Virus record (IMG/VR): IMGVR_UViG_2908567220_000007 | From: a virus | Lineage: Duplodnaviria; Heunggongvirae; Uroviricota; Caudoviricetes | DNA: 14,602 nucleotides | Strand: one strand, 5' to 3' | Shown here: positions 1 to 14,602 of the stretch, piece after piece | How positions within the stretch are numbered: position 1 is the first letter of the stretch | Layout of the letters: every line of letters begins with the position of its first letter | Position numbers and translations under genes: made by a program | The notes under the pieces: model-generated | Told to the model about the DNA's origin: nothing | Seen by the model: only the letters and a program-made list of their open reading frames with translations | Databases searched by the model: none

Positions 1-303
1 TTACTTCCTGCGTTTATCCTGCTTTGTATGCCCGTGCTGAATGCCCCGCAGTGGATCTTCTTTTTTCAGGTCGATCCCCATGTCCGTTAGTGTTTTTGTG
101 GCGGCGGTTCTTATGGCACAAATCAGGTCTCTTTCCGGTTCCCGGGTTATGGTTGCCTTCCGGATGCATGCCGTTCGTCGTTCCGTTACATACTGACGCG
201 CTTCATCACTTGCCGCCTGTTTCAGTAACTCACCCCAGCGATTAGCCGCCCGTCGCCATAAACCTTTCGCTTCCAGTTCTTCCGCTTTGTCATCATGCAC
301 CAT
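1..303 (-). CDS. PerC-family-like small transcriptional regulator (paralog of 4278..4565)
   Basis: ORF track gives 1..372; the probable start is the internal Met at 301..303 (MVHDDKAEELEAKGLWRRAANRW...), which aligns with the start of the paralog at 4278..4565 (MIRDSKAEELEAKGLYRRAAARW...RRAECIRRA) and has a GGGA motif upstream. Family assignment rests on recalled PerC/Pch motifs, not a search. Stop codon is at window position 1..3. Confidence 0.55.
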   Translation of the reverse strand: MVHDDKAEELEAKGLWRRAANRWGELLKQAASDEARQYVTERRTACIRKATITREPERDLICAIRTAATKTLTDMGIDLKKEDPLRGIQHGHTKQDKRRK

Positions 304-417
304 AAGCATAATCCCATTGATACCTGTTAAATCTGAATGGTTGGTTTCTGTTCTTTTGATAATTTTCCGCATAGCTTATTGTATGACAGTACTGTCCCAC
401 AATAAGGAGTTGCACGC

Positions 418-3436: not shown

Positions 3437-3985
3437 TTATTCCCCCTGGTGAATCTCCTGCACTACCTGCGGCGTGCTGTCGTGCCAGTCGTTAGCCTGT
3501 ATCACTCTGGTAGTAATTTGCCTGCACAGGTCATCAATAATCTGCCTGACGCGGTTTACTGCGTTCTGATTGATGCCTGCATCGTGCGCCAGAATGTCGG
3601 GGAGTTTTGCCAGTTCCTCGCTTAAGATTTTCCCAAAAATAACCAACTCCCTGCGCACATCCACGGCGGGGATAAGTTCAGCCGTTTCCTGCTCGAACTT
3701 AAGGCGCTCACGCTCAGACTGGTACCAGGCTTTACGGCTTTGTGGATCCATGTCTTCGAGTGATGCGGGGGCGGGTATATTCATGAATGCGCTGATTATA
3801 TCCGTCAGTCGGTACAGCTTTAATTTTTCATGCCCTCCGGCTGGCTGAATGTCCTTTAGCCTTTTCGCTACTGTCTGGCGGCAAACTCCCGCCAGTTCTG
3901 CGAGTTGATTGATATTAAGTTTCAGGTTTTTAAGCTCCCGATCCATTCGTCCTCCGGTAGTTTTAAATGCGTATCGTGCGCTCAT
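3437..3985 (-). CDS. Nu1-like terminase small subunit / packaging-redirection protein (N-terminal HTH)
   Basis: 182-aa ORF; N-terminal NINQLAELAGVCRQTVAKRL...KLYRLTDIISAF resembles the lambda Nu1 HTH (NKKQLADIFGASIRTIQNW...VLYDSAAVIKWY). Sits about 150-190 bp downstream of cos copy B, as Nu1 does after lambda cos. An internal Met at 3944..3946 with GGAGGA upstream is an alternative start. Confidence 0.55.
   Translation of the reverse strand: MSARYAFKTTGGRMDRELKNLKLNINQLAELAGVCRQTVAKRLKDIQPAGGHEKLKLYRLTDIISAFMNIPAPASLEDMDPQSRKAWYQSERERLKFEQETAELIPAVDVRRELVIFGKILSEELAKLPDILAHDAGINQNAVNRVRQIIDDLCRQITTRVIQANDWHDSTPQVVQEIHQGE
3445..3469. repeat. 25-bp direct repeat (copy 2), overlapping the 3' end of the Nu1-like gene
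   Basis: Exact match to 3068..3092, 377 bp apart. Confidence 0.85.
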
Positions 3986-4277: not shown

Positions 4278-4565
4278 TCACTGGTTACCGCCAGGCTGCT
4301 TCGGGTAGTTCCGCCAGACGGATTTACCCGCGTCTTCCATCCCCATCACCGCATGAGTGCGGTTTACAGCCTCTTTCAGTGCCCCGAAGTTATCCGCCAT
4401 AACGGGTGGGCGTGCTGCCCTGCGGATGCATTCCGCGCGACGCTTTGCCACCTGTTCGCGCTCCTTATCGGTGTTCACCAGCTGCATGACCTCAGCCCAC
4501 CGCGCCGCCGCTCTCCGGTACAGGCCTTTAGCCTCCAGTTCTTCCGCTTTGCTGTCACGAATCAT
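4278..4565 (-). CDS. PerC-family-like small transcriptional regulator
   Basis: 95-aa ORF MIRDSKAEELEAKGLYRRAAARWAEVM...RRAECIRRA, paralogous to 1..303; start overlaps the stop of the upstream ORF by 4 nt. Confidence 0.55.
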   Translation of the reverse strand: MIRDSKAEELEAKGLYRRAAARWAEVMQLVNTDKEREQVAKRRAECIRRAARPPVMADNFGALKEAVNRTHAVMGMEDAGKSVWRNYPKQPGGNQ

Positions 4566-5098
4566 GCGCCTGTCTTCTCCTTTGTCGCCTGACGTTTGCG
4601 CTTTTCATTCAGTGCTGCCAGCCGCGTTTCTGCCTCCTGCTGTTCCTGTGGTGTCACTTCCCCACATGGCTGGCCTTTCAGGTCGTAACGTGTGCCACCA
4701 GCCATTAAGGCGCGGTAATAGCGCGGAGACTGCGCATAAGATGCCAGCGTCGCACGTAATGCCCCCGGCCCGAATGTCAGCCCCCTGGCGGCGATATCCT
4801 GTATCAGGTCGTCGAATATCCCCACCTTAAGCGGCTTCGGTGCTTTATGGCTGAATAAGTCAGGCCACATCTCAGTGAGGCGGTTAACGCGTCGGCGGTT
4901 TTTGCGCTGCCTTTTGGTCATATGCTGACACGGTGTCGCCCCTGCGGTCTTCTGTTTGCGGCTCTGCTGTGCGTTCTGATTATCGGGTATCACTTTATGC
5001 GCCGATGTGGTTTTATCCTGCTCTTGTGCCGCCTGCGTCGTTTTCTGCGGCGTGCCGTAAATGCCTTTCGGTTTTCGGTTAATGGTCAGCTTTGTCAT
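4562..5098 (-). CDS. ProQ/FinO-domain protein (putative RNA chaperone)
   Basis: 178 aa; PLKVGIFDDLIQDIAARG...LRATLASYAQSPRYYRAL...GTRYDLKGQPCGEVTPQEQQEAE resembles the ProQ N-terminal FinO domain (PLKIGIFQDL...LRSALRLYTSSWRYL...[23 protein letters not shown], recalled). Basic, low-complexity N-terminus. SD AGGGGA upstream. Confidence 0.7.
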   Translation of the reverse strand: MTKLTINRKPKGIYGTPQKTTQAAQEQDKTTSAHKVIPDNQNAQQSRKQKTAGATPCQHMTKRQRKNRRRVNRLTEMWPDLFSHKAPKPLKVGIFDDLIQDIAARGLTFGPGALRATLASYAQSPRYYRALMAGGTRYDLKGQPCGEVTPQEQQEAETRLAALNEKRKRQATKEKTGA

Positions 5099-5134: not shown

Positions 5135-5560
5135 TTAAAACGGTATGTTATCCCCGTACGGGTCATCGTGCTGGCTTGTCTGTTGTTTTGCCCTGTTCAG
5201 TGCGTCAGTGGCCTGGCCCTGTTGACCTTTTTTGCCGCCCGGTCGCGCCGTTCGCGCACTGATTACGCTGTCTGCAATAACCTGCCAGCCCTGCCGCGTT
5301 TCCCCGTTCTGGCCTGTCCACTGGCTTACCTGCATGTTACCCGCCACGCTCACCAGTTCGCCTTTCTGGTGCCTGGCCAGTGCGTCGGCCTGTCTGCCAA
5401 ACGCCAGGACGGATAACCACATCGTCGCCGTTCCGTCATCTGCCTGGCTGCACGGCAGGGGAACCGCCATACTCGCCATCGCCATTTGTGTCCCTTTGCT
5501 GGTGGTCTTTAACTGCGGGTCAGCCACCAGCCGCCCGTAAGCCGCTATCTGTGCTGTCAT
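5135..5560 (-). CDS. ssb: single-stranded DNA-binding protein (SSB-like)
   Basis: 141 aa; OB-fold-like N-terminal region (AAYGRLVADPQLKTT...GTATMWLSVLAFGRQADALARHQKGELVSVAGNMQVSQWTGQNGETRQGWQVIADSV), Gly/Gln-rich linker and a C-terminal DDPYGDNIPF resembling the canonical SSB DDDIPF tip. ATGA overlap with the upstream ORF. Confidence 0.7.
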   Translation of the reverse strand: MTAQIAAYGRLVADPQLKTTSKGTQMAMASMAVPLPCSQADDGTATMWLSVLAFGRQADALARHQKGELVSVAGNMQVSQWTGQNGETRQGWQVIADSVISARTARPGGKKGQQGQATDALNRAKQQTSQHDDPYGDNIPF

Positions 5561-6330
5561 GCTGTATGTTCTCCGTTTTTTACTGGCCCTGTCATCAGTG
5601 CGCGCTTAAGCTGCTTGTGTGAGATATTAAACAGGCAGTTCATTCTTCCCGTTCGCTTCATCCGATAACCCGATGCGACCATTGCGGCGATTAATGCGCC
5701 GTTTGTGATGTATGTCGGCTCTGTTGGTTGCCCGTCGCCCTTAGCTCTTCTCTGATTCACACGCTCAACACAATGTTTCAGGCCGTAGGATGTCGGATTT
5801 TTTCCAGGGAATGATGCAATCTTACAGTCGGTTAGGTTGTTCTCCCTTATCCAGCGTAAACAGCTCATCGCCTCCGCCATGAAGGGCGCATAATCAAGCG
5901 GGTGCTGCCATGCCTTATCACGGCTGTACAGTTCAAGTCCGTCGCGGTTAAAAAACGGGTAAGCGGCAAGAATTACCGTTACTGCGTGTTTAATTTCCAC
6001 CTCATCATTCTGTCGCTCTTTTTCTGTTCCGTACGGATAATAATCAGAACCGCCCGGATTGATGCACTGTTTACCACTGAAAGGCCATTGCTTCGCCATT
6101 TCGGGGGTTGAGTGATTACCGTCGCTCCGTTCTCGTTGTGCCTCTGTCCACTGGCTGGCGTATTCCGTAAAACTCACCGCCTTACTCTGTCGCATCCAGT
6201 GCGCAATCATGACCAGCGTTCTGGTAAGGCTCTGTATATCTCCGTGCTTCTCACACTGTCCCGCAAAGGCCTTGAGCGCTTCGCGTTCTTTGTAGTTCAT
6301 ACCCTGACGGGTCATATTTTCTTTATTCAT
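5557..6330 (-). CDS. hypothetical protein, replication-module associated
   Basis: 257-aa ORF immediately downstream of the iteron array and translationally coupled to the SSB-like gene; no family recognised by eye. Confidence 0.55.
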   Translation of the reverse strand: MNKENMTRQGMNYKEREALKAFAGQCEKHGDIQSLTRTLVMIAHWMRQSKAVSFTEYASQWTEAQRERSDGNHSTPEMAKQWPFSGKQCINPGGSDYYPYGTEKERQNDEVEIKHAVTVILAAYPFFNRDGLELYSRDKAWQHPLDYAPFMAEAMSCLRWIRENNLTDCKIASFPGKNPTSYGLKHCVERVNQRRAKGDGQPTEPTYITNGALIAAMVASGYRMKRTGRMNCLFNISHKQLKRALMTGPVKNGEHTA

Positions 6331-6511
6331 TCCCCACTACTCCCCGCTTTTGTTCCCCACTTTTTAAATTTCCCACTTGCTTCCCACCTCGTTTTTTGGG
6401 TGAGTCTAATACTTTGTTTTTCATTGTATTTTTTACTCCCCACTTTTTTGGATGTATACAGGCCGGAAAGTGGGGAATAGCGTTTCAATTTTGTTAAATT
6501 CCCCGCTATCC
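6331..6511. repeat. iteron-like repeat array (putative replication origin), left part
   Basis: Eight copies of TCCCCACT-like heptamers (CCCCACT, CCCCGCT, TCCCACT, TCCCACC) at about 6332, 6342, 6355, 6371, 6382, 6438, 6501 plus an inverted copy GTGGGGA at 6470, around an AT-rich spacer (6391..6435). Confidence 0.5.
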
Positions 6512-6596
6512 GTAACCGTCTCATTTAAACCGTCTTTCGCCTCCCTTTCCTGTTTCCGATACTAATGTCCATTTTCGCAGTAAAGGGACATTTAAG

Positions 6597-7247
6597 ATGA
6601 ATGCACGAAAAGCGGTACTGGCAGACAATCCGGAATTGATCCTGCGTGTGCTACAGCTGAGATTTGACGAGTCACTGTCGTACCCGCGCATTTCTGCGCA
6701 GACCGGTGTCAGCAAAACCGCCATTTTTTCTCTGGTGAGGCGATTTCACCAGGTATTCACTGACTGGCCTCTTTCCGGTGAATATTCCTGCGGGCAACTG
6801 GCCCGGGCTCTTTTCCCGGGGCGATACCCTTCAGCCCCGACCGTGACTCAGCCTGTGAAAGCAGAGAAACCCCGCCGGAACCGATTTTCACCGGAGTTTA
6901 AATGGAGACTGGTTCAGCAAACTCTTTTACCCGGTGCCTGTGTCGCACAAATAGCTCGAGAGAATGGAATTAACGATAACCTGCTCTTTAACTGGCGGCA
7001 TCTCTGGCGTAACGGTGGCCTGCAACCGCCCGGCGAACATGAAACATCGCTACTTCCCGTGACGTTAACTCCGGAGCCGGATAATAAAATCCCGGCACCA
7101 GTGCAGATACCTGAACAGATAAATACACTGCCAGACAGTCTGTGCTGCGAGCTGGTTCTGCCGGCCGGAACTCTCAGGCTGAAAGGTGAACTGACACCGG
7201 CGTTATTACAGACACTTATCCGCGAAATGAAAGGGAGCAGCCACTGA
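6597..7247 (+). CDS. tnpA: IS66-family accessory protein (orf1)
   Basis: 216-aa ORF, first in the IS; AAGGGA Shine-Dalgarno; ATGA overlap with the next ORF, as is typical for IS66 elements. Confidence 0.75.
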   Translation: MNARKAVLADNPELILRVLQLRFDESLSYPRISAQTGVSKTAIFSLVRRFHQVFTDWPLSGEYSCGQLARALFPGRYPSAPTVTQPVKAEKPRRNRFSPEFKWRLVQQTLLPGACVAQIARENGINDNLLFNWRHLWRNGGLQPPGEHETSLLPVTLTPEPDNKIPAPVQIPEQINTLPDSLCCELVLPAGTLRLKGELTPALLQTLIREMKGSSH

Positions 7248-7594
7248 TGATATCTCTCCCTGCCGGTTCGCGTATCTGGCTGGTTGCCGGTATCACCGAT
7301 ATGCGAAATGGCTTTAACGGCCTGGCCTCAAAAGTTCAGAACGTCCTGAAGGATGACCCGTTCTCCGGGCATCTGTTCATCTTCCGCGGACGCCGGGGTG
7401 ACCAGATAAAAGTGCTGTGGGCTGACAGTGACGGACTGTGCCTCTTCACCAAACGCCTGGAGCGGGGCCGCTTCGTCTGGCCGGTCACCCGCGATGGAAA
7501 GGTTCACCTTACTCCGGCTCAGTTGTCCATGCTTCTCGAAGGCATCGACTGGAAGCACCCGAAACGAACGGAACGCGCTGGCATCCGCATATAA
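7247..7594 (+). CDS. tnpB: IS66-family protein TnpB (orf2)
   Basis: 115-aa ORF MISLPAGSRIWLVAGITDMRNGFNGLASKVQ...LFIFRGRRGDQIKVLWAD, characteristic of IS66 orf2. Confidence 0.85.
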   Translation: MISLPAGSRIWLVAGITDMRNGFNGLASKVQNVLKDDPFSGHLFIFRGRRGDQIKVLWADSDGLCLFTKRLERGRFVWPVTRDGKVHLTPAQLSMLLEGIDWKHPKRTERAGIRI

Positions 7595-7613
7595 CCCGTT
7601 GTAAAGTGAGGAT

Positions 7614-9185
7614 ATGGACACCTCACTTGCTCATGAGAATGCCCGCCTGCGGGCACTGTTGCAGACGCAACAGGACACCATCCGCCAGATGGCGAAATAC
7701 AACCGCCTGCTCTCACAGCGGGTGGCGGCTTATGCTTCCGAAATCAACCGGCTGAAGGCGCTGGTTGCGAAACTGCAGCGCATGCAGTTCGGTAAAAGCT
7801 CAGAAAAACTTCGCGCTAAAACCGAACGGCAGATACAGGAAGCCCAGGAGCGAATCAGCGCACTTCAGGAAGAAATGGCGGAAACGCTGGATGAGCAATA
7901 TGACCCGGTACTGCCATCCGCCCTGCGCCAGTCTTCAGCCCGTAAGCCGTTACCGGCCTCACTTCCCCGTGAAACCCGGGTCATCCGGCCGGAAGAGGAA
8001 TGCTGCCCGGCCTGTGGTGGTGACCTCAGTCCTCTGGGGTGTGATGTGTCAGAGCAACTGGAGCTTATCAGCAGCGCTTTTAAGGTTATCGAAACACAAC
8101 GTCCGAAACTGGCCTGTTGCCGGTGCGACCATATCGTGCAGGCACCAGTACCTTCAAAACCCATTGCACGCAGTTATGCCGGAGCGGGGCTTCTGGCTCA
8201 TATCGTCACCGGGAAGTATGCAGACCATCTGCCGTTATACCGCCAGTCAGAAATATACCTTCGTCAGGGCGTGGAACTGAGCCGCGCCACGCTGGGGCGC
8301 TGGACCGGTGCCGTTGCTGAACTGCTGGAGCCGCTGTATGACGTGCTGCGCCAGTATGTGCTGATGCCCGGTAAAGTCCATGCGGATGATATCCCCGTTC
8401 CGGTCCAGGAGCCGGGCAGTGGTAAAACAAGAACTGCCCGGCTGTGGGTCTATGTCCGTGATGACCGTAACGCCGGTTCACAGATGCCCCCGGCGGTCTG
8501 GTTCGCGTACAGCCCGGACCGGAAAGGTATCCATCCACAGAATCACCTGGCCGGTTACAGCGGTGTGCTTCAGGCAGATGCTTACGGTGGTTACCGGGCG
8601 TTATACGAATCCGGCAGAATAACGGAAGCCGCGTGTATGGCCCATGCCCGGAGAAAAATCCACGATGTGCATGCAAGAGTGCCAACCGACATCACCACGG
8701 AAGCCCTGCAGCGTATCGGTGAACTGTATGTCATCGAGGCAGAAGTCCGGGGATGTTCAGCAGAACAGCGTCTGGCAGCAAGAAAAGCCAGAGCGGCTCC
8801 ACTGATGCAGTCACTGTATGACTGGATACAGGAACAGATGAAAACACTGTCGCGTCACTCGGATACGGCAAAAGCGTTCGCATACCTGCTGAAACAGTGG
8901 GAGGCCCTGAACGTGTACTGCAGTAATGGCTGGGTGGAAATCGACAACAACATCGCAGAGAACGCCTTACGGGGAGTGGCCGTAGGCCGGAAAAACTGGC
9001 TCTTCGCGGGTTCCGACAGCGGTGGCGAACATGCGGCGGTGTTGTACTCGCTGATCGGCACATGCCGTCTGAACAATGTGGAACCAGAAAAATGGCTGCG
9101 TTACGTCATTGAGCATATCCAGGATTGGCCGGCAAACCGGGTACGCGATCTGTTGCCCTGGAAAGTTGATCTGACCTCTCAGTAA
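7614..9185 (+). CDS. tnpC: IS66-family transposase (orf3)
   Basis: 523-aa ORF with N-terminal coiled-coil/leucine-zipper-like region, CCPACGG...CCRC zinc-finger-like motif and a long catalytic core, as in IS66 transposases; GAGG Shine-Dalgarno. Confidence 0.9.
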
Positions 9186-9215
9186 ATATCAATACGGTTC
9201 TGGCGAGCCGCTTAC

Positions 9216-9243
9216 CGCTATCCCCACTTTTATCCCCCACTTT
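9216..9243. repeat. iteron-like repeat array, right part (separated from the left part by the IS66 insertion)
   Basis: cgctatccccacttttatcccccactttt carries two further CCCCACT copies immediately after the right target duplication and just 3' of the helicase stop at 9244. Confidence 0.5.
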
Positions 9244-10650
9244 TTACAGTGGATGCACGTCATTGCCGTCGATAGTGATCACGCCGTCTTTTTCCAGCTT
9301 GTACAGCCAGCGCCGGAAGTGCTTCATCTCATACCCCAGCTTTTTCATATCGTCACGTAGCAGGGCGATAGTGCACGGCTCTTTGTGTGCTGTCCGTGTT
9401 CTTATGCACTGCCATAATGCGGCGTGATTCTCCGTCTTGTTCCCGGCCTCCTCGATGCGTTCCAGTTCAGCAGGGGCGCGGGGAACGTCAATCACCACCA
9501 TGGACACAATCTCTTCGCCATCTGTATCGGTGAACACCTCCACGCTTTTAAGGTCGTATGCGCTCTCTTTTGGCTCCTCTGCGTCCTTCATCTTCGTACA
9601 TGCCGCCACCAGTGCTGTAACGTCTGAATTTTCCCGGCCGATTCGGTACTCTGCATCAAGCGCGGCACGGAATGCGCTGGAACCACGCGCCCCCTTTGTT
9701 TCATCCTTGCCGGAATGGTGAACCACCAGCACCGTGGCCCCTGTAGCCTGCTTTATCGCGTCACACCCCTGGATAAATGCGCCCATATCACGGGAATCAT
9801 TTTCATCATTCCCACCAAAGCAACGGGCCAGCGTGTCGATCACAATCAGCCGCACATTTTCGCCCGTTCTGCTCTTAACAAGTCCGGCAGTCCTGATAAC
9901 CTGCTCCACATAGTCAGGCGATGCGGGAAAGACAGGCGCGTTAACGATGCACAAATCTGTAACCTCTTTTCCGTATGTTATCTCCCACGCCTTAACGCGG
10001 CGTTTTACGCCCATACTGCCTTCGCCAGCGATATAGATAACCGCGCCCTTACTTACCCTGCGGCCTCCCCATGCCATACCTGTGGCAACATGGCACGACC
10101 AGGAAATAGCCAGGAACGATTTATAAGAACCGCTGGCCCCGTAGGTGCTGCATAATGACTCAGCCGGAATAAGCCCCTTAATTACGTAGCTTTGCTGCGC
10201 GTCGAATCCCTCAGAACCCCATGAGATGGGAAGTGTGATTTTTCGCTTTCCACCATTCATGACCAGACTTTCCCCGCGTTCCCAGGTTTCTTTAAGCCGC
10301 GGTAGTTGCTCGCTCCAGTCCTCCAGCAGTTCGAAATTCTCTGAAAGTAACCGTGCTTCCTGGACACCTGCGATCGCCAGTTTGGTGGCAATGGTCAGCA
10401 TCTGCATATCGTCCAGGTTTCCGGCGCGTATGACCTTTGCTCTGTATCGTCCTTCATCAACAATCTGTAAATTGTCCAGTTCGCTTAACTGATAACGGCC
10501 CAGGTAAACCGGAGGGATGGGATCGCCTGCTTTTTTGGCCTGTGCAATCATGTAATGTTCTGCAAAGGAGTGAGCATTATCACCCGCAAAAATAACCGCC
10601 TCAGTGTGTTTATCTTTCGGTAACAGTTTTACGTTCGGTGCCAGTTTCAT
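9244..10650 (-). CDS. RepA-like P-loop replicative helicase (RecA-fold ATPase)
   Basis: 468 aa; P-loop-like GASGSYKS, Walker B-like RLIVIDTL, and VLVVHHSGK motif reminiscent of RSF1010 RepA-type helicases; C-terminal winged-helix-like tail; AGAGGT Shine-Dalgarno; followed directly by the iteron array. Confidence 0.75.
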   Translation of the reverse strand: MKLAPNVKLLPKDKHTEAVIFAGDNAHSFAEHYMIAQAKKAGDPIPPVYLGRYQLSELDNLQIVDEGRYRAKVIRAGNLDDMQMLTIATKLAIAGVQEARLLSENFELLEDWSEQLPRLKETWERGESLVMNGGKRKITLPISWGSEGFDAQQSYVIKGLIPAESLCSTYGASGSYKSFLAISWSCHVATGMAWGGRRVSKGAVIYIAGEGSMGVKRRVKAWEITYGKEVTDLCIVNAPVFPASPDYVEQVIRTAGLVKSRTGENVRLIVIDTLARCFGGNDENDSRDMGAFIQGCDAIKQATGATVLVVHHSGKDETKGARGSSAFRAALDAEYRIGRENSDVTALVAACTKMKDAEEPKESAYDLKSVEVFTDTDGEEIVSMVVIDVPRAPAELERIEEAGNKTENHAALWQCIRTRTAHKEPCTIALLRDDMKKLGYEMKHFRRWLYKLEKDGVITIDGNDVHPL

Positions 10651-10946
10651 TTTTTACCTCTGGATGCGCTGAGCATGCTTTTTATTTTCTTAATATTTTC
10701 CCGTGCTTTTTCCCTGCTGGTGGGCTTACTGCGTGTTGCGTTCTGTACCAGAGAAAAATCACGCCGGAACTGATAAACAGGCATCACGCAGTCATAGCCG
10801 TACCCATCACGGCGGTAAGTAACGCACCGTCCCGCCACGCTTTTAATCGTTACCGTGCCGCCGTAGTTATCCCGGAAAATATCGCCGGGGTGGATTTCAG
10901 GCCGAGCGGGGCCGCTGGCAGTAAAGCCAGAATTTTTCTGTTTCAT
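10647..10946 (-). CDS. hypothetical protein
   Basis: 99-aa ORF whose stop overlaps the helicase start by 4 nt (translational coupling); no family recognised. Confidence 0.5.
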   Translation of the reverse strand: MKQKNSGFTASGPARPEIHPGDIFRDNYGGTVTIKSVAGRCVTYRRDGYGYDCVMPVYQFRRDFSLVQNATRSKPTSREKARENIKKIKSMLSASRGKK

Positions 10947-10951
10947 GGTTT

Positions 10952-11185
10952 TTATTTCCCGGTGTGTTGTTCTTTATATCTGTCGTGCAAAAGATCTATT
11001 TCTTGTAGTTCCATTATTACCGGCTCAAGAAGCGTTATTAACGCCGTCGCAATATTGCTGTTGCGTTTATCTCTTTCATTATCGCCAAGCGTTCCAAGCC
11101 ATAAGCGCAATATTTCAAGCATGTTTTCACTGTAAGCAAGAGCACGGTATGCACGGTCTACTGTGTCATTGTAAATATCACACAT
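10952..11185 (-). CDS. hypothetical protein
   Basis: 77-aa ORF with GAGGA Shine-Dalgarno 8 nt upstream; 8-nt overlap with the upstream ORF. Confidence 0.5.
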   Translation of the reverse strand: MCDIYNDTVDRAYRALAYSENMLEILRLWLGTLGDNERDKRNSNIATALITLLEPVIMELQEIDLLHDRYKEQHTGK

Positions 11186-11411
11186 GGCTTACATCCTCAG
11201 GGAATTTTCTTCTGTAACGCGCCTCTGCCACATATTCAGCATAGTCCGACGCAATAACGAGAATATCGCTGCCTGTTCCTGAATGCTCAGTGGTTCCAAT
11301 TAAAAAACATGCGGCCTTTATCAGGTCATTAACAACCAGCAACGCATCACCCGCATCATCCGATACGCCATCAAATTCCTGTTTCAGGGCATTAAAACGA
11401 TCATCACGCAT
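11178..11411 (-). CDS. hypothetical protein (possibly the C-terminal part of a frameshifted gene)
   Basis: 77-aa ORF whose ATG lies 2 nt after a 9-nt poly-G tract (plus-strand poly-C 11414..11422); one extra G would fuse it in frame to the 11384..11644 ORF. Confidence 0.45.
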   Translation of the reverse strand: MRDDRFNALKQEFDGVSDDAGDALLVVNDLIKAACFLIGTTEHSGTGSDILVIASDYAEYVAEARYRRKFPEDVSHV

Positions 11412-11644
11412 AACCCCCCCCCATTTTCACAATCAGCAATCAGGATAGCCCTGGCCTCATTCAGTGCCATATCAGCGGTAAGCTGTGCGTAGGCCAGCGA
11501 ATGCGGGATTATTGCCCCTGTATATTCCGGCTCTCTGGTAATGTGTTTTTCCGCGGTTGCTGCCGTGCATGAAATATCAATCAGCGCATCAATCAGTGTT
11601 TTGATTGCTTCGGCGACTGCGTCCGGACGGGTGTTATTGCACAT
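11384..11644 (-). CDS. hypothetical protein (possibly the N-terminal part of a frameshifted gene)
   Basis: 86-aa ORF with GGGGG Shine-Dalgarno; reads through the poly-G tract as GGG and stops 9 codons later. Confidence 0.45.
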   Translation of the reverse strand: MCNNTRPDAVAEAIKTLIDALIDISCTAATAEKHITREPEYTGAIIPHSLAYAQLTADMALNEARAILIADCENGGGLCVMIVLMP

Positions 11645-11840
11645 GATGCACCCCCTGACGAATACGGGCGGCGAATACCATCACGCAGCCAGCCGGGGAT
11701 TGCTGGCGTGCTTCCTGTTCGCTGGTGGCCTCAATGGTAATCACGCGCGGTTGTGCCGTGCTCAGGGCGATAAAACGCCAGATGTATTTATTCAGGTTGT
11801 GCGAGTCCCGCCCTTGCGGGTGTCTGGTATAATTTCTCAT
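11634..11840 (-). CDS. hypothetical small protein, first gene of the leftward operon
   Basis: 68-aa ORF from the ATG at 11838..11840 with GAGGTA Shine-Dalgarno; it is the 3' portion of the 328-aa track ORF, the rest of which looks like antisense read-through. Confidence 0.4.
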   Translation of the reverse strand: MRNYTRHPQGRDSHNLNKYIWRFIALSTAQPRVITIEATSEQEARQQSPAGCVMVFAARIRQGVHHVQ

Positions 11841-11879
11841 AGCTACCTCGATACTCTTTCTATCGTTGGTGGTTAGACG

Positions 11880-12036
11880 CCCTGCATGTGTGCCACCACT
11901 GCGGGGCGTTGCTGTATATACACCACAATTATTGGTGTGCATACAGATTAAATTTAAGTGTGCTACAGTGTCAAGTGTTTTATTAACACACCTTTTGGTG
12001 TAATGTGTACACACCTCAAAATAACCGGACATCCTA
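11880..12036. promoter_or_regulatory. divergent promoter/operator region with clustered ACACC/GGTGT inverted repeats
   Basis: TATATACACCA-7-TGGTGTGCATA at 11915..11943; ACACC-TTTT-GGTGT at 11988..12001; GGTGT-9-ACACC with palindrome GTGTACAC at 12005..12012; three AGTGT direct repeats at 11958..11978. Confidence 0.45.
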
Positions 12037-12342
12037 ATGGCAACAGGAAACATCAACAGCAGATCGCAAATGAAAAATATCCGCTTCCCCCATGATGTAA
12101 TCGAGGAAATGGAAAATTCGAAAACGGAAGGGGAAACAATAGCCGCTTTCGTGATTACAGCTGTTCGCGGGGAGATCGCCCGCCGCCAAGCTGAAGGAAG
12201 CGGAGAAAATCCCCTGGTTTCTTCGCTCGATGCACTGGCGCAGGTGGAAAAAATTGGAGTCAAAGCTGCCGAGGAGATCGGGCAACTAGTCGCCGTCGCG
12301 CGTGAAGAACTCCAGCGCCGCAAGGCCAAAGAGCAGGAATAG
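12037..12342 (+). CDS. putative small DNA-binding regulator (possible ribbon-helix-helix; coiled-coil C-terminus)
   Basis: 101-aa ORF divergent from the leftward operon; KNIRFPHDVIEEMEN looks like a strand-helix ribbon-helix-helix start; weak Shine-Dalgarno, and an alternative start at the Met at 12070. Confidence 0.45.
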   Translation: MATGNINSRSQMKNIRFPHDVIEEMENSKTEGETIAAFVITAVRGEIARRQAEGSGENPLVSSLDALAQVEKIGVKAAEEIGQLVAVAREELQRRKAKEQE

Positions 12343-12445
12343 CCCACCAGCAAGCCAGCACACTGATCACATTGCCAACCGGATGTAATCACGGCATAGT
12401 AATCAGCGCTCATGCGTTGGGGATAACGCGCAATTAGTGTTGAAG

Positions 12446-12474
12446 GGCCACCGTAGCGGGTGGCCTTTGTTTTG
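12446..12474 (+). terminator. putative rho-independent terminator
   Basis: GGCCACC-gtagcg-GGTGGCC hairpin followed by TTTGTTTTG, about 100 nt after the 12342 stop. Confidence 0.5.
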
Positions 12475-12624
12475 CCTGTTATCCGGCAATTGTGGCGCTT
12501 CGCCACACGGTTGATATAATTCCCCTGCACTGATCCATTTTTTTCGCAGCAGGTTAATTGTTCGCAAGGGCGCTCCGGCAACGGGGCGCTTTTTGTTATG
12601 TTCATCGCGTTACGCCTCACACCA

Positions 12625-12831
12625 TTACGCAGCCGTTCCGCGCGCTTCTTCCTCGCGCTCTTTCAGCCAGGCCAGCACTTCATCTTCATACCAGCCAACA
12701 CGGCGCAGACCGATTTTGAAGCCTTTCGGGAATTTTCCGGCGTTGATCATGTCCTGTAGCGAACTGTCTGCCTTGATGCGCAGAATATTTTTTACTTCCT
12801 GACGGGTAAGTATTTTTCTGATTGTTTCCAC
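12625..12831 (-). CDS. alpA: AlpA-family phage transcriptional regulator (Vis/excisionase-like HTH)
   Basis: 68 aa; LTRQEVKNILRIKADSSLQDMINAGKFPKGFKIGLRRVGWYEDEVLAWL matches the AlpA pattern (KFP...G.R.VGW...E...W). Confidence 0.85.
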   Translation of the reverse strand: METIRKILTRQEVKNILRIKADSSLQDMINAGKFPKGFKIGLRRVGWYEDEVLAWLKEREEEARGTAA

Positions 12832-12899
12832 TATGTTTTACCTCGTTAATCCGGCGTATTCCGGTGATAAATACGGTAAAACAGGGCAGGGCGGGAAAA

Positions 12900-12935
12900 A
12901 CAGTACCCACCGTTTTAAAACGGTACCCACTGTTT
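12900..12935. promoter_or_regulatory. perfect 16-bp palindrome ACCGTTTTAAAACGGT flanked by direct repeats GTACCCAC, upstream of alpA
   Basis: Palindrome at 12909..12924; GTACCCAC at 12903..12910 and 12923..12930, 20 bp apart. Confidence 0.4.
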
Positions 12936-12963
12936 TTTATCTCATTGATTACGCTTTTCTTTC

Positions 12964-12997
12964 TGCAAAAAAATAGCGACCGCAAGGGGCCGCTATT
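12964..12997 (-). terminator. putative rho-independent terminator after the int-proximal small ORF
   Basis: Minus-strand hairpin AATAGCGGCC-ccttgc-GGTCGCTATT followed by a T-run (plus-strand A-run 12967..12973). Confidence 0.5.
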
Positions 12998-13001
12998 GTG
13001 A

Positions 13002-13244
13002 TTACCGTTTCCACTTCTTAGGTCGCCCACCGCATTTAAGGCTGGTGGGCCTCAGCACCTTGTCGATGCTTTCAGCCAGATTTTTCGATGCGCCACGCGA
13101 GCGTAAAAAACTGACTACCTCGTGTTTTGTGGGGGCTGTTGATTTGTCTTCCGGATCGTATGTTGACCAGAATTCACGATTTGCCATTAACGCCAGTTGC
13201 AGCCCTTCGCCGCAAGCAGGGGATACCTTTTCATTGAAAAACAC
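13002..13244 (-). CDS. hypothetical protein
   Basis: 80-aa ORF starting at GTG with AAGGAG 8 nt upstream; between int and alpA; followed by a terminator. An internal ATG (MANREFW...) is an alternative start. Confidence 0.5.
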   Translation of the reverse strand: MFFNEKVSPACGEGLQLALMANREFWSTYDPEDKSTAPTKHEVVSFLRSRGASKNLAESIDKVLRPTSLKCGGRPKKWKR

Positions 13245-13360
13245 CTGGATAGCTCCTTGAATTTCATGATTTGGGTGACTCCTCTCTGTATTGGGTGGGT
13301 TGTGGCGATTATACGATGGTTTAGCATGGTTTGCATTGCTTTTACTGGTTTTTTGTACAG

Positions 13361-14602
13361 TTACACGGCACGGATACCCCTTTTACCACTGGCTATGGTC
13401 ACTCCGGTAGCTGCGGCCTCTACAAATTCCCCCCACCAGCGCATAAGCACCACGCGCTTTTCCAGGTAGTTACTTCGGTTATATGCTCGCCTTACCTCGT
13501 TTGTGTCCACGTGTGCGAGTGCGGCCTCGATTACGTCCGGCTCGAATCCTTCCTCGTTCGCTGCTGTACTGAATATGGCGCGTAATCCGTGAGACACCAG
13601 CACACCAGCGTAACCCATCCGGCGCAATGCGGCGTTAGCTGTCTGGCTGCTCATTGGCAGCATTGGATTTTTAAGGCTGGGAAAAACGTGTTCCCTGTGT
13701 GCGCTGATTGGCTTCATGGTTTCCAGTACAGCCATAGCCTGACCGCAAAGGGGGATCACGTGGTCACGGCGCATCTTCATGCGTCCGGCTGGAATCGTCC
13801 AGGTTTCGGCATCGAGATCTATTTCTTCCCAGCGTGCGGCGGCTGCTTCGGCTGGGCGTGCTACGGTCAGCAGTTGCCACTCAATCAGCAATCTGGTTTG
13901 CCGTTCTATGCTGGCGACCGATAAATCGTGCATTAGCTGCGGTAGCTGTTCCGGTCGGATGGTTGGCATGTGCTTTTTGGTGGGTGAGGGGAATGCCTTG
14001 CGGACGTTCGCGGCGGTGTTGATGTCAATCAGCCCACTGTTGGCAGCAAAATCCATCACTTCATTGATGCGTTGTAAAACGCGTTTCAGGGTTTCCAGGT
14101 TGCCGCGTGCTTTAATGGGTGTGAGTATCTCAACAAAGCGGCGAGCTGTGAGGGTATCTATTGGCGTGTTTCCGATGTACGGGAATACGTATTTTTCCAG
14201 GGATCGCCAGATATCCTTAATCGTGTTGTAAGCCAGATTCTGGCCTTTTTTCATCTCGTACCAGTCCGAGGCAACTTTTTCGAACGTGTTGCCCTTTTTC
14301 CGACTCTCTGCTTCACGTTTCCGGCGTTCGTGGTCCTGTGGGTCAACTCCCTTCGCTATGAGTGACCTGTATTCATTCCGTCGTTCTCTGGCATCGGACA
14401 GGGAAACATCATTCAGCGATCCGAGGCTGATGATAGTCCGTTTTTTATCTGCCGGGCGGTAGTACGTAAAACGCCAGATTTTTGATCCGGAGGGTTTCAC
14501 CAGAAGAAATAATCCTCCACCATCCTGCAGGGTGTATTCCTTTTCCCCTGGTCGTGCGTTTTTGATCTCCGTAATAGTTAGTGGGGTGGTTTTTCGTGCC
14601 AT
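13361..14602 (-). CDS. int: P4-type tyrosine integrase (site-specific recombinase, phage integrase family)
   Basis: 413 aa; N-terminal arm-binding-like region (MARKTTPLTITEIKNARPGEKEYTLQDGGGLFLLVKPSGSKIWRFTYY); C-terminal catalytic region with HGLR box and RRAYNRSNY tyrosine region. Start codon is the last three bases of the window. Confidence 0.95.
   Translation of the reverse strand: MARKTTPLTITEIKNARPGEKEYTLQDGGGLFLLVKPSGSKIWRFTYYRPADKKRTIISLGSLNDVSLSDARERRNEYRSLIAKGVDPQDHERRKREAESRKKGNTFEKVASDWYEMKKGQNLAYNTIKDIWRSLEKYVFPYIGNTPIDTLTARRFVEILTPIKARGNLETLKRVLQRINEVMDFAANSGLIDINTAANVRKAFPSPTKKHMPTIRPEQLPQLMHDLSVASIERQTRLLIEWQLLTVARPAEAAAARWEEIDLDAETWTIPAGRMKMRRDHVIPLCGQAMAVLETMKPISAHREHVFPSLKNPMLPMSSQTANAALRRMGYAGVLVSHGLRAIFSTAANEEGFEPDVIEAALAHVDTNEVRRAYNRSNYLEKRVVLMRWWGEFVEAAATGVTIASGKRGIRAV

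Follow-up and report, generated by a model that had tools for sequence, protein, structure and literature searches.

A GTGGGG iteron array downstream of a RepA-type helicase gene as the probable replication origin of a Gram-negative PICI in Escherichia coli

Short repeats that cluster beside a replication helicase gene raise the question whether they form an origin that is read by this very helicase. We address this question for a 14,602-nt stretch of viral DNA (IMG/VR record IMGVR_UViG_2908567220_000007), henceforth termed the window, in which positions 6331-6511 of the + strand contain TCCCCACT-like words. The original prediction described these words as about ten heptamers, one of them inverted, with an AT-rich spacer and a position immediately 3' of the helicase gene, and proposed an origin comparable to those of P4 and the staphylococcal pathogenicity islands (SaPIs). 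Here, we determine computationally the statistics of the array, its original position, its conservation and the co-variation of iterons with protein, and use fold prediction to assign a winged helix to the presumed iteron reader. Comparison with related islands suggests that the array is very probably the replication origin of a Gram-negative phage-inducible chromosomal island (PICI) and the cognate site bound by the 468-aa helicase (Rep) that the island encodes.

The degenerate motif TYCCCRCT occurs eight times in the 14.6-kb window, a number that was reached in 0 of 200 dinucleotide-preserving shuffles (mean 1.89 +/- 1.34). Seven of the eight occurrences fall within 6331-6507, for which the shuffle mean scaled to this span predicts about 0.02, and the remaining one is located at 9221-9228. 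Allowing one mismatch adds a copy at 9234-9241 and raises the count for the whole window to 14, which is not significant against 9.8 expected; the signal is thus carried by the exact degenerate motif and by its clustering. When the array is described by the core G[TC]GGG[GA], ten copies are obtained in the window, nine of them direct (in the helicase sense) and one inverted. The predicted number of repeats and the single inverted copy therefore hold, but only eight of the ten cores lie inside 6331-6511, with the other two at 9222-9240, just past the helicase stop codon. The repeat unit also needs revision, being a hexamer core within a consensus of about 10 nt, aAAGTGGGGAa, and not strictly a heptamer.

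Read from the rep side in the helicase sense, the stop codon is followed by three direct iterons (AAAGTGGGGGAT, AAAAGTGGGGAT and AGCGGGGAAT), a 19-nt spacer, the inverted iteron, the stretch CCGGCC-TGTATACA-TCC, a further direct iteron, an AT-rich core of about 45 nt and, finally, five direct iterons (Table 1). The rep side of the AT-rich core holds five copies (d1-d3, the inverted copy and d4), as does the distal side, and iterons within a set are spaced 9-16 nt from start to start. The AT-rich spacer that had been noticed within the array is borne out by a GC content of 0.30 at 6400-6459, and the 40-mer at 6399-6438 ranks second for low stability in the region searched, lying about 2.8 SD under the mean. 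In the 201-nt origin, reconstructed as described below, we detected neither a DnaA box nor an IHF consensus, a Fis-like site or a GATC, and a DnaA-dependent, plasmid-like origin, for which there was thus no sign, was discarded as a candidate. A search of the intact spacer in the closest complete relative (L001) for sigma-70 promoter-like or terminator-like sites likewise returned none.

Table 1. Positions of the array, the helicase gene and their neighbours in the window
Feature	Position	Strand	Remark
468-aa replication helicase (Rep)	9244-10650	-	Pfam AAA_25, E 2.4e-43
Coding region of the C-terminal domain (residues 396-468)	9247-9465	-	proposed iteron reader
His444 codon	9319-9321	-	
Rep-proximal origin end	9224-9243	-	iterons d1 and d2
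Iteron d1	9235-9240	-	begins 3 nt past the helicase stop codon
Iteron d2	9222-9227	-	from the core search
Iteron d3 (GCGGGG)	6501-6506	-	third of the rep-proximal direct set
Inverted iteron	6470-6475		opposite to the other nine
Iteron d4	6438-6443		direct
Palindrome TGTATACA	6453-6460		inverted repeats; enclosed by the inverted iteron pair (inverted copy and d4, 6438-6475)
AT-rich core	6392-6437		proposed strand-opening site; GC 0.30, low stability, AT-rich at the same position in relatives
Distal direct set d5-d9	6332-6387	-	6382-6387, 6371-6376, 6355-6360, 6342-6347, 6332-6337
IS66-family insertion sequence	6512-9215	+	2,704 bp, foreign to the origin; Pfam HTH_Tnp_1, TnpB_IS66, DDE_Tnp_IS66
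IS66-family gene tnpA	6597-7247	+	
IS66-family gene tnpB	7247-7594	+	
IS66-family gene tnpC	7614-9185	+	
8-bp target duplication CGCTATCC	6504-6511 (left), 9216-9223 (right)		
Second PerC-family gene	1-372	-	
DUF1441 terminase-small-subunit-like (terS-like) protein	3437-3985	-	
PerC	4278-4565	-	
ProQ	4562-5098	-	
SSB	5135-5560	-	
257-aa hypothetical protein	5557-6330	-	first gene past the origin
Upstream PICI context	10647-14602	-	co-oriented: integrase, AlpA, Icd-like region, small ORFs, DUF4222
DUF4222	10647-10946	-	
328-aa GTG-started ORF	11634-12620	-	Icd-like region; probably over-called
ORF inside the Icd-like region	12037-12342	+	
AlpA	12625-12831	-	
Integrase	13361-14602	-	

The block at 6331-6511 does not adjoin the helicase gene in the window, since an IS66-family element with the terminal repeats GTAACCG.../GTAAGCG... 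lies between the two. Full-length copies that are 100% identical to this element are found in the genomes of other E. coli at sites unrelated to this one; they occur on chromosomes as well as plasmids, and pig isolates predominate among the top matches. The insertion point is located between d2 and d3, both of which survive, so that the element shifts d1-d2 by 2.7 kb from the other eight iterons and destroys none. Removal of the element together with one copy of the target duplication restores a 201-nt spacer that reaches from the helicase stop codon to the ATG of the next gene, and this spacer is that of five independent IS-free assemblies with an identical helicase, with 0 mismatches. The boundaries of the insertion sequence, the target duplication and the five identical IS-free alleles together imply that the array originally lay directly 3' of the helicase gene. 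The predicted adjacency of array and helicase is thus correct for the reconstructed and the IS-free loci and holds only for d1-d2 in the window as it stands. Among the six places shown for the identical helicase, one, CP024978.1 (assembly GCA_002803805.2; L093), shares the insertion and has no mismatch to the window over 9,359 nt. As the other five lack the element, the IS-bearing origin is a derived and uncommon state. The insertion may weaken the origin in this genome, and the interruption of such an origin by an insertion sequence goes, as far as we found, beyond the literature.

The surroundings of the array are those of a satellite island. The window runs in the order int, alpA, DUF4222, RepA-type helicase, array, SSB, ProQ and PerC, all on the - strand. 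The window's integrase shares 99% identity with the one encoded by an island at tRNA-Pro/yejM (L001), a published PICI attachment site (PMC6092414). With int, alpA, unidirectional genes and an attachment site that is assigned through this integrase identity, the gene content marks the host element as a Gram-negative PICI of E. coli. Islands of this kind typically measure about 10-15 kb and have no full phage morphogenesis set. PerC homologues are known PICI cargo (PMC6092414). The closest complete relative is the island of E. coli C5 (L001), which is 96% identical across the reconstructed junction, lacks the insertion sequence and lies at tRNA-Pro beside yejM. ProQ was found in no type but that of the window: among the nine E. 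coli islands compared it occurs in L001, and it is also present in the assemblies with an identical helicase (L090-L095) and, next to the 257-aa gene, in L096 and L098. The phage collection contains no close relative of the helicase, every match being <60% identical, which sets the element apart from known phage replicons.

Two annotations in the upstream region call for caution. The 328-aa ORF matches Icd-like and repressor families only over its last 50-85 residues, and in relatives an Icd-like gene of about 66 aa is followed by a divergently oriented YlcI/YnfO gene; on these two grounds the ORF is probably over-called. The + strand ORF at 12037-12342 within the same region had no significant Pfam match.

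Among 5,426 complete E. coli genomes, 737 match the reconstructed junction. Nine E. coli origins align slot for slot and share as invariant features an A-tract ahead of each core, C-TGTATA, and GAAACA in the AT-rich core, while G-T-G occupies core positions 1-3 in most slots. The cores themselves are GTGGGG in the window, L001, L002, L088 and L083, GTGGG[C/T/A] in L085 and L087, and GTGAG[G/A/T/C] in L084 and L086; they switch in concert across the slots, with the layout kept. Outside E. coli, relatives of the helicase were identified in 80 loci from Xenorhabdus, Pantoea, Kosakonia, Morganella, Pectobacterium, Serratia and others. Far from being absent from homologous islands, repeats in the same layout directly follow the helicase stop codon in nearly all 88 loci examined across Enterobacterales, the number with this architecture being at least 80; the exceptions outside E. 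coli, in which the gene is broken or the array unrecognised, are L024, L071, L072, L077, L080, L082 and, in part, L068. Cores in the non-E. coli loci are GTGAGGA, GTGGGGA, GTGCGGC or GTGGGGGA. A TATATAC-like centre also occurs in other genera, and some relatives have a second inverted iteron on the distal side.

The last iteron abuts the ATG of whichever gene follows (6328-6340 in the window; likewise in L001, L002 and L083-L088), this gene encoding 257 aa in the window and L001 and about 81-83 aa in most other relatives. Similarity to relatives at the DNA level ends at the start codon of this next gene, which looks like a recombination junction of a mosaic. In L096 (2899-3308) and L099 (1720-2129), both with Asn at helicase residue 444, the spacer is extended to about 410 bp, and the normal array is followed by an inverted iteron, TATATA, a direct iteron, an AT-rich stretch and one further iteron. 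Judging from its arrangement, this second unit looks like a partial duplication of the origin.

The protein that would act at this site consists of an N-terminal domain (residues 1-130), a RecA-fold core of the RepA/SF4 type (about 146-317) and a predicted C-terminal winged helix (396-468). The core is related to RSF1010 RepA (PDB 1g8y). Full-length AlphaFold2 modelling gave a poor result (pLDDT 64.7), and the fold search with this low-confidence model, which retrieved Twinkle, T7 gp4, KaiC and RAD51 as neighbours of the core, backs only the RecA-type core. Residues 396-468, modelled with an 11-sequence alignment, reached a pLDDT of 89 and form three helices followed by a beta-hairpin. The nearest solved folds of this domain are the winged-helix DNA binders PcaR, DtxR, LexA, Fur, HrcA, the MCM4 WHD and histone H1, with probabilities of 0.9-0.99, TM scores of 0.6-0.7 and weak E-values of 0.05-0.3, as is usual for a domain of only 73 residues. 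The C-terminal domain is accordingly predicted to be a winged helix. Pfam searches with the C-terminal 71 residues and the N-terminal 133 residues returned nothing significant, and no Pfam-recognised primase domain was detected in the 468-aa form.

Other initiators share parts of this architecture. In Xenorhabdus, Pectobacterium, Morganella, Serratia and others (L004-L022, L029-L054), a homologous initiator of about 680-730 aa carries a long, different N-terminal region and keeps the C-terminal domain and the origin layout of the 468-aa form. The N-terminal ~126 residues of the helicase are common to the D5/SF3-type Rep of EcCICFT073 (L089, 5242-6996; 46% identity, E 4e-27) and do not track iteron type; this domain may serve to dock DUF4222 or a factor of the host or helper.

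To which part of the protein does the iteron type correspond? Similarity of the whole helicase does not predict it. The helicase of L086 is 94% identical to that of the window overall, and 98% in the N-terminal domain and core, yet its iterons are GTGAG, whereas that of L002 is only 64% identical overall (43-69% in the N-terminal domain and core), yet has GTGGGG iterons. When the helicase alignment was divided into 40-column bins, only the last ~70 residues followed iteron type. In a comparison of 13 island proteins or protein segments, the loci likewise fall in order of iteron type with helicase residues 396-468 alone, and none of AlpA, DUF4222, the helicase N-terminal domain, the helicase core and SSB tracks it.

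The C-terminal segment contains the motif K-X-F-x-R-W-L-x-K-L, of which X is residue 444, the residue directly preceding the third helix (445-454 in the full-length model). His at this position occurs with GTGGG[G/N] iterons in 14 loci, Asn with GTGAGG in 27, Ser with GTGCGGC in 7 and Lys with GTGGGGG in 33, with no exception among the loci that have an array; these counts include many close relatives, for example about 25 Xenorhabdus loci, and the number of independent switches is consequently far smaller than that of loci. The His/Asn switch is found in at least four C-terminal backgrounds (EMKH/EMKN twice, DTKH/DVKN and NTKH/NVKN). The most informative pair is L083 and L096, whose 73-residue C-terminal domains differ only by H444N and whose iterons are GTGGGG-type and GTGAGG, respectively, corresponding to a G-to-A change at core position 4. 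On balance, we favour the view that origin specificity is set by a one-residue/one-base code, in which residue 444 would read core position 4/5, and that the C-terminal domain and the origin together might form an exchangeable cassette. This putative cassette would be bounded by one junction close to residue 395 and another at the start codon of the gene that follows. Neither the residue-444/iteron rule nor the cassette exchange has, as far as we found, been described for Gram-negative PICIs. We also considered that co-resident islands avoid the same iteron type; this idea is unsupported, as two Xenorhabdus genomes each harbour two loci of the Asn/GTGAGG type (L011/L013 and L012/L015).

Among characterized systems, the Gram-negative PICIs provide the closest match. 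Their origins lie directly 3' of rep/'pri' and consist of two iteron sets flanking an AT-rich region, and maintenance of a plasmid by the pri-ori segment of EcCICFT073 requires both the gene and ori (Fillol-Salom et al. 2018, ISME J, PMC6092414). The islands listed there include EcCIED1a.1 and EcCI11128, which occupy the yejM site, and EcCIDI14 (PMC6092414). EcCIDI14 corresponds to our locus L083, and its GTGGGG-type array agrees slot for slot with that of the window. The window shares with this group the island family, the gene order, the attachment-site group and the slot and layout of the origin, and differs in that an IS66-family element interrupts its copy. An origin of this kind is thus already described, and the picture of PICI replication is unchanged. 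EcCICFT073 itself, the one island of this family whose origin has been tested functionally, has the order DUF4222, Rep, origin, small ORF, SSB and PerC, which places its origin in the same slot as in the window. However, its Rep is a 584-aa D5/SF3-type protein (D5_N/DUF5906/Pox_D5), as opposed to AAA_25 in the window, with only the first 126 residues in common (46% identity), and its origin comprises 288 bp with TCTACC/GGTAGA iterons, as opposed to 201 nt with GTGGGG. The two origins cannot be equated given these differences in Rep type and iterons. The assignment of a RepA-type PICI origin draws on analogy and comparative evidence, and the proof obtained with EcCICFT073 would transfer to it by architecture and synteny, not by homology of the origin sequence.

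The SaPI system offers a mechanistic parallel. SaPI Rep is a self-loading AAA+ (SF3/MCM-like) helicase-initiator whose C-terminal winged helix recognises iterons of five or six nucleotides (Qiao et al. 2022, PMC9371898). The corresponding ori comprises 6-12 iterons directly downstream of rep with an AT-rich centre, Rep binds and melts it independently of ATP, and two hexamers are involved (PMC9371898). The window is alike in its hexamer iterons past rep and in a predicted C-terminal winged helix that, to judge from co-variation, specifies the iterons. The motors are not homologous, that of SaPI Rep being AAA+ and that of the window RecA-fold RepA/SF4-type. Moreover, SaPI ori has opposed iterons on its two sides, whereas nine of the ten iterons in the window share one orientation, with the sole inverted copy on the rep side and at least two iterons on each side.

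Phage satellite P4 is the weaker of the two analogues named in the original prediction. It is likewise a satellite element with a helicase protein that carries a C-terminal DNA-binding domain for short repeats. P4 requires two separated repeat regions, ori and crr, and its alpha protein is a D5/SF3-type enzyme with a primase domain and a C-terminal DNA-binding domain recognising short repeats. The window has a single cluster once the insertion sequence is discounted, other near-matches being at chance level, and its helicase has neither a D5/SF3 motor nor a primase domain. With RSF1010 (IncQ), the window shares the family of the helicase core (AAA_25). In RSF1010, a separate protein, RepC, binds iterons of about 20 bp, and RepA is devoid of a DNA-reading domain; in the window, the proposed reader is fused to the helicase and the iterons measure 6-10 bp. 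Iteron plasmids use non-helicase initiators, 17-22-bp iterons, DnaA boxes and loading of host DnaB. Compared with those of the Rep_3/pi/TrfA type, the window differs in its 6-10-bp unit, the lack of a DnaA box and a helicase as the initiator candidate, and it is alike in its direct repeats, AT-rich core and predicted winged helix. In pPS10, F, R6K and RK2, a winged-helix initiator binds direct repeats beside an AT-rich unwinding element (reviewed in PMC4980987).

The suggested origin function is supported by the PICI context, the conserved layout and the co-variation with the helicase C-terminus, and it has to be weighed against readings in which the array has lost this function or serves another. 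The most serious of these accepts an origin by descent that is now non-functional in this genome: by splitting off d1-d2 and adding 2.7 kb, the insertion sequence would leave the island with no or poor replication after induction. The position of the element inside the array fits this scenario, as does the rarity of the IS-bearing allele among identical helicases, and SaPI origins draw on both of their iteron sets (PMC9371898). Against it, no iteron is damaged, owing to the target duplication, the five distal iterons still form one uninterrupted stretch with the AT-rich core and the inverted pair, and the intact helicase gene could act in trans. We regard such a loss as a real possibility, albeit not the likelier outcome. 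The repeats would be put to a different use if they were mainly a transcriptional operator for the 257-aa gene, ssb, proQ and perC, bound by the helicase winged helix or by another regulator. The array ends directly at the start codon of the following gene in all E. coli relatives, iteron-plasmid initiators frequently double as repressors, and binding of the helicase to the array would equally fit a regulatory role. Yet the intact spacer offers no sigma-70 promoter-like site, the array is the same whether a gene for 257 or for about 81-83 aa follows, AlpA, DUF4222 and SSB are indifferent to iteron type, and ten sites with an AT-rich core are origin-like and occupy the slot of the tested origin in EcCICFT073. 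A predominantly regulatory array is hence unlikely, while an operator role is compatible with the origin role as a possible secondary function.

Still less probable is a packaging site, pac or cos-like, for the small-terminase-like protein of the island. The island does encode such a protein, with a DUF1441 domain, and small terminases often bind repeated sites; but iteron type follows the helicase C-terminus and not the downstream genes, arrays persist in relatives with different late modules, and Figure S5 of PMC6092414 treats the cos sequences of EcCICFT073 as elements of their own, which together make this explanation very improbable. Finally, a functionless chance or low-complexity cluster or a recombination scar would agree with the insignificant one-mismatch count for the whole window. 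The strong enrichment and clustering of the exact degenerate motif, and a layout that is kept across genera through concerted changes of the core, effectively refute this reading.

If the array is the origin of the island, its use can be pictured as follows. After induction of the island, the helicase would bind the GTGGGG iterons through its C-terminal winged helix, with residue 444, which marks the N-terminus of the recognition helix, reading core base pair 4. Helicase molecules would assemble on the two iteron sets, i.e., on the three direct iterons and the inverted pair around TGTATACA on the rep side and on the five direct iterons on the far side. The AT-rich core of about 45 bp between the sets would then open, the RecA-fold helicase would load itself as a ring, and host enzymes would do the rest. 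We infer these steps of binding, melting, self-loading and replication at the array from its architecture and from its relatives.

PICIs spread virulence and accessory genes at high frequency, represented here by the PerC and ProQ homologues, and their replication after induction by a helper phage depends on a private pair of initiator and origin. The IS66-family insertion into the origin may have crippled the mobility of the island in this strain. At the level of the family, a RecA-fold helicase appears to have reached the layout of the unrelated AAA+ Rep of SaPIs, with a predicted C-terminal winged helix and iterons past the stop codon. The correspondence between residue 444 and iteron base 4 provides a testable rule for pairing helicase variants with the origins that they fire and, if the proposed code is true, one motor could be re-targeted to a new origin by exchange of the cassette.
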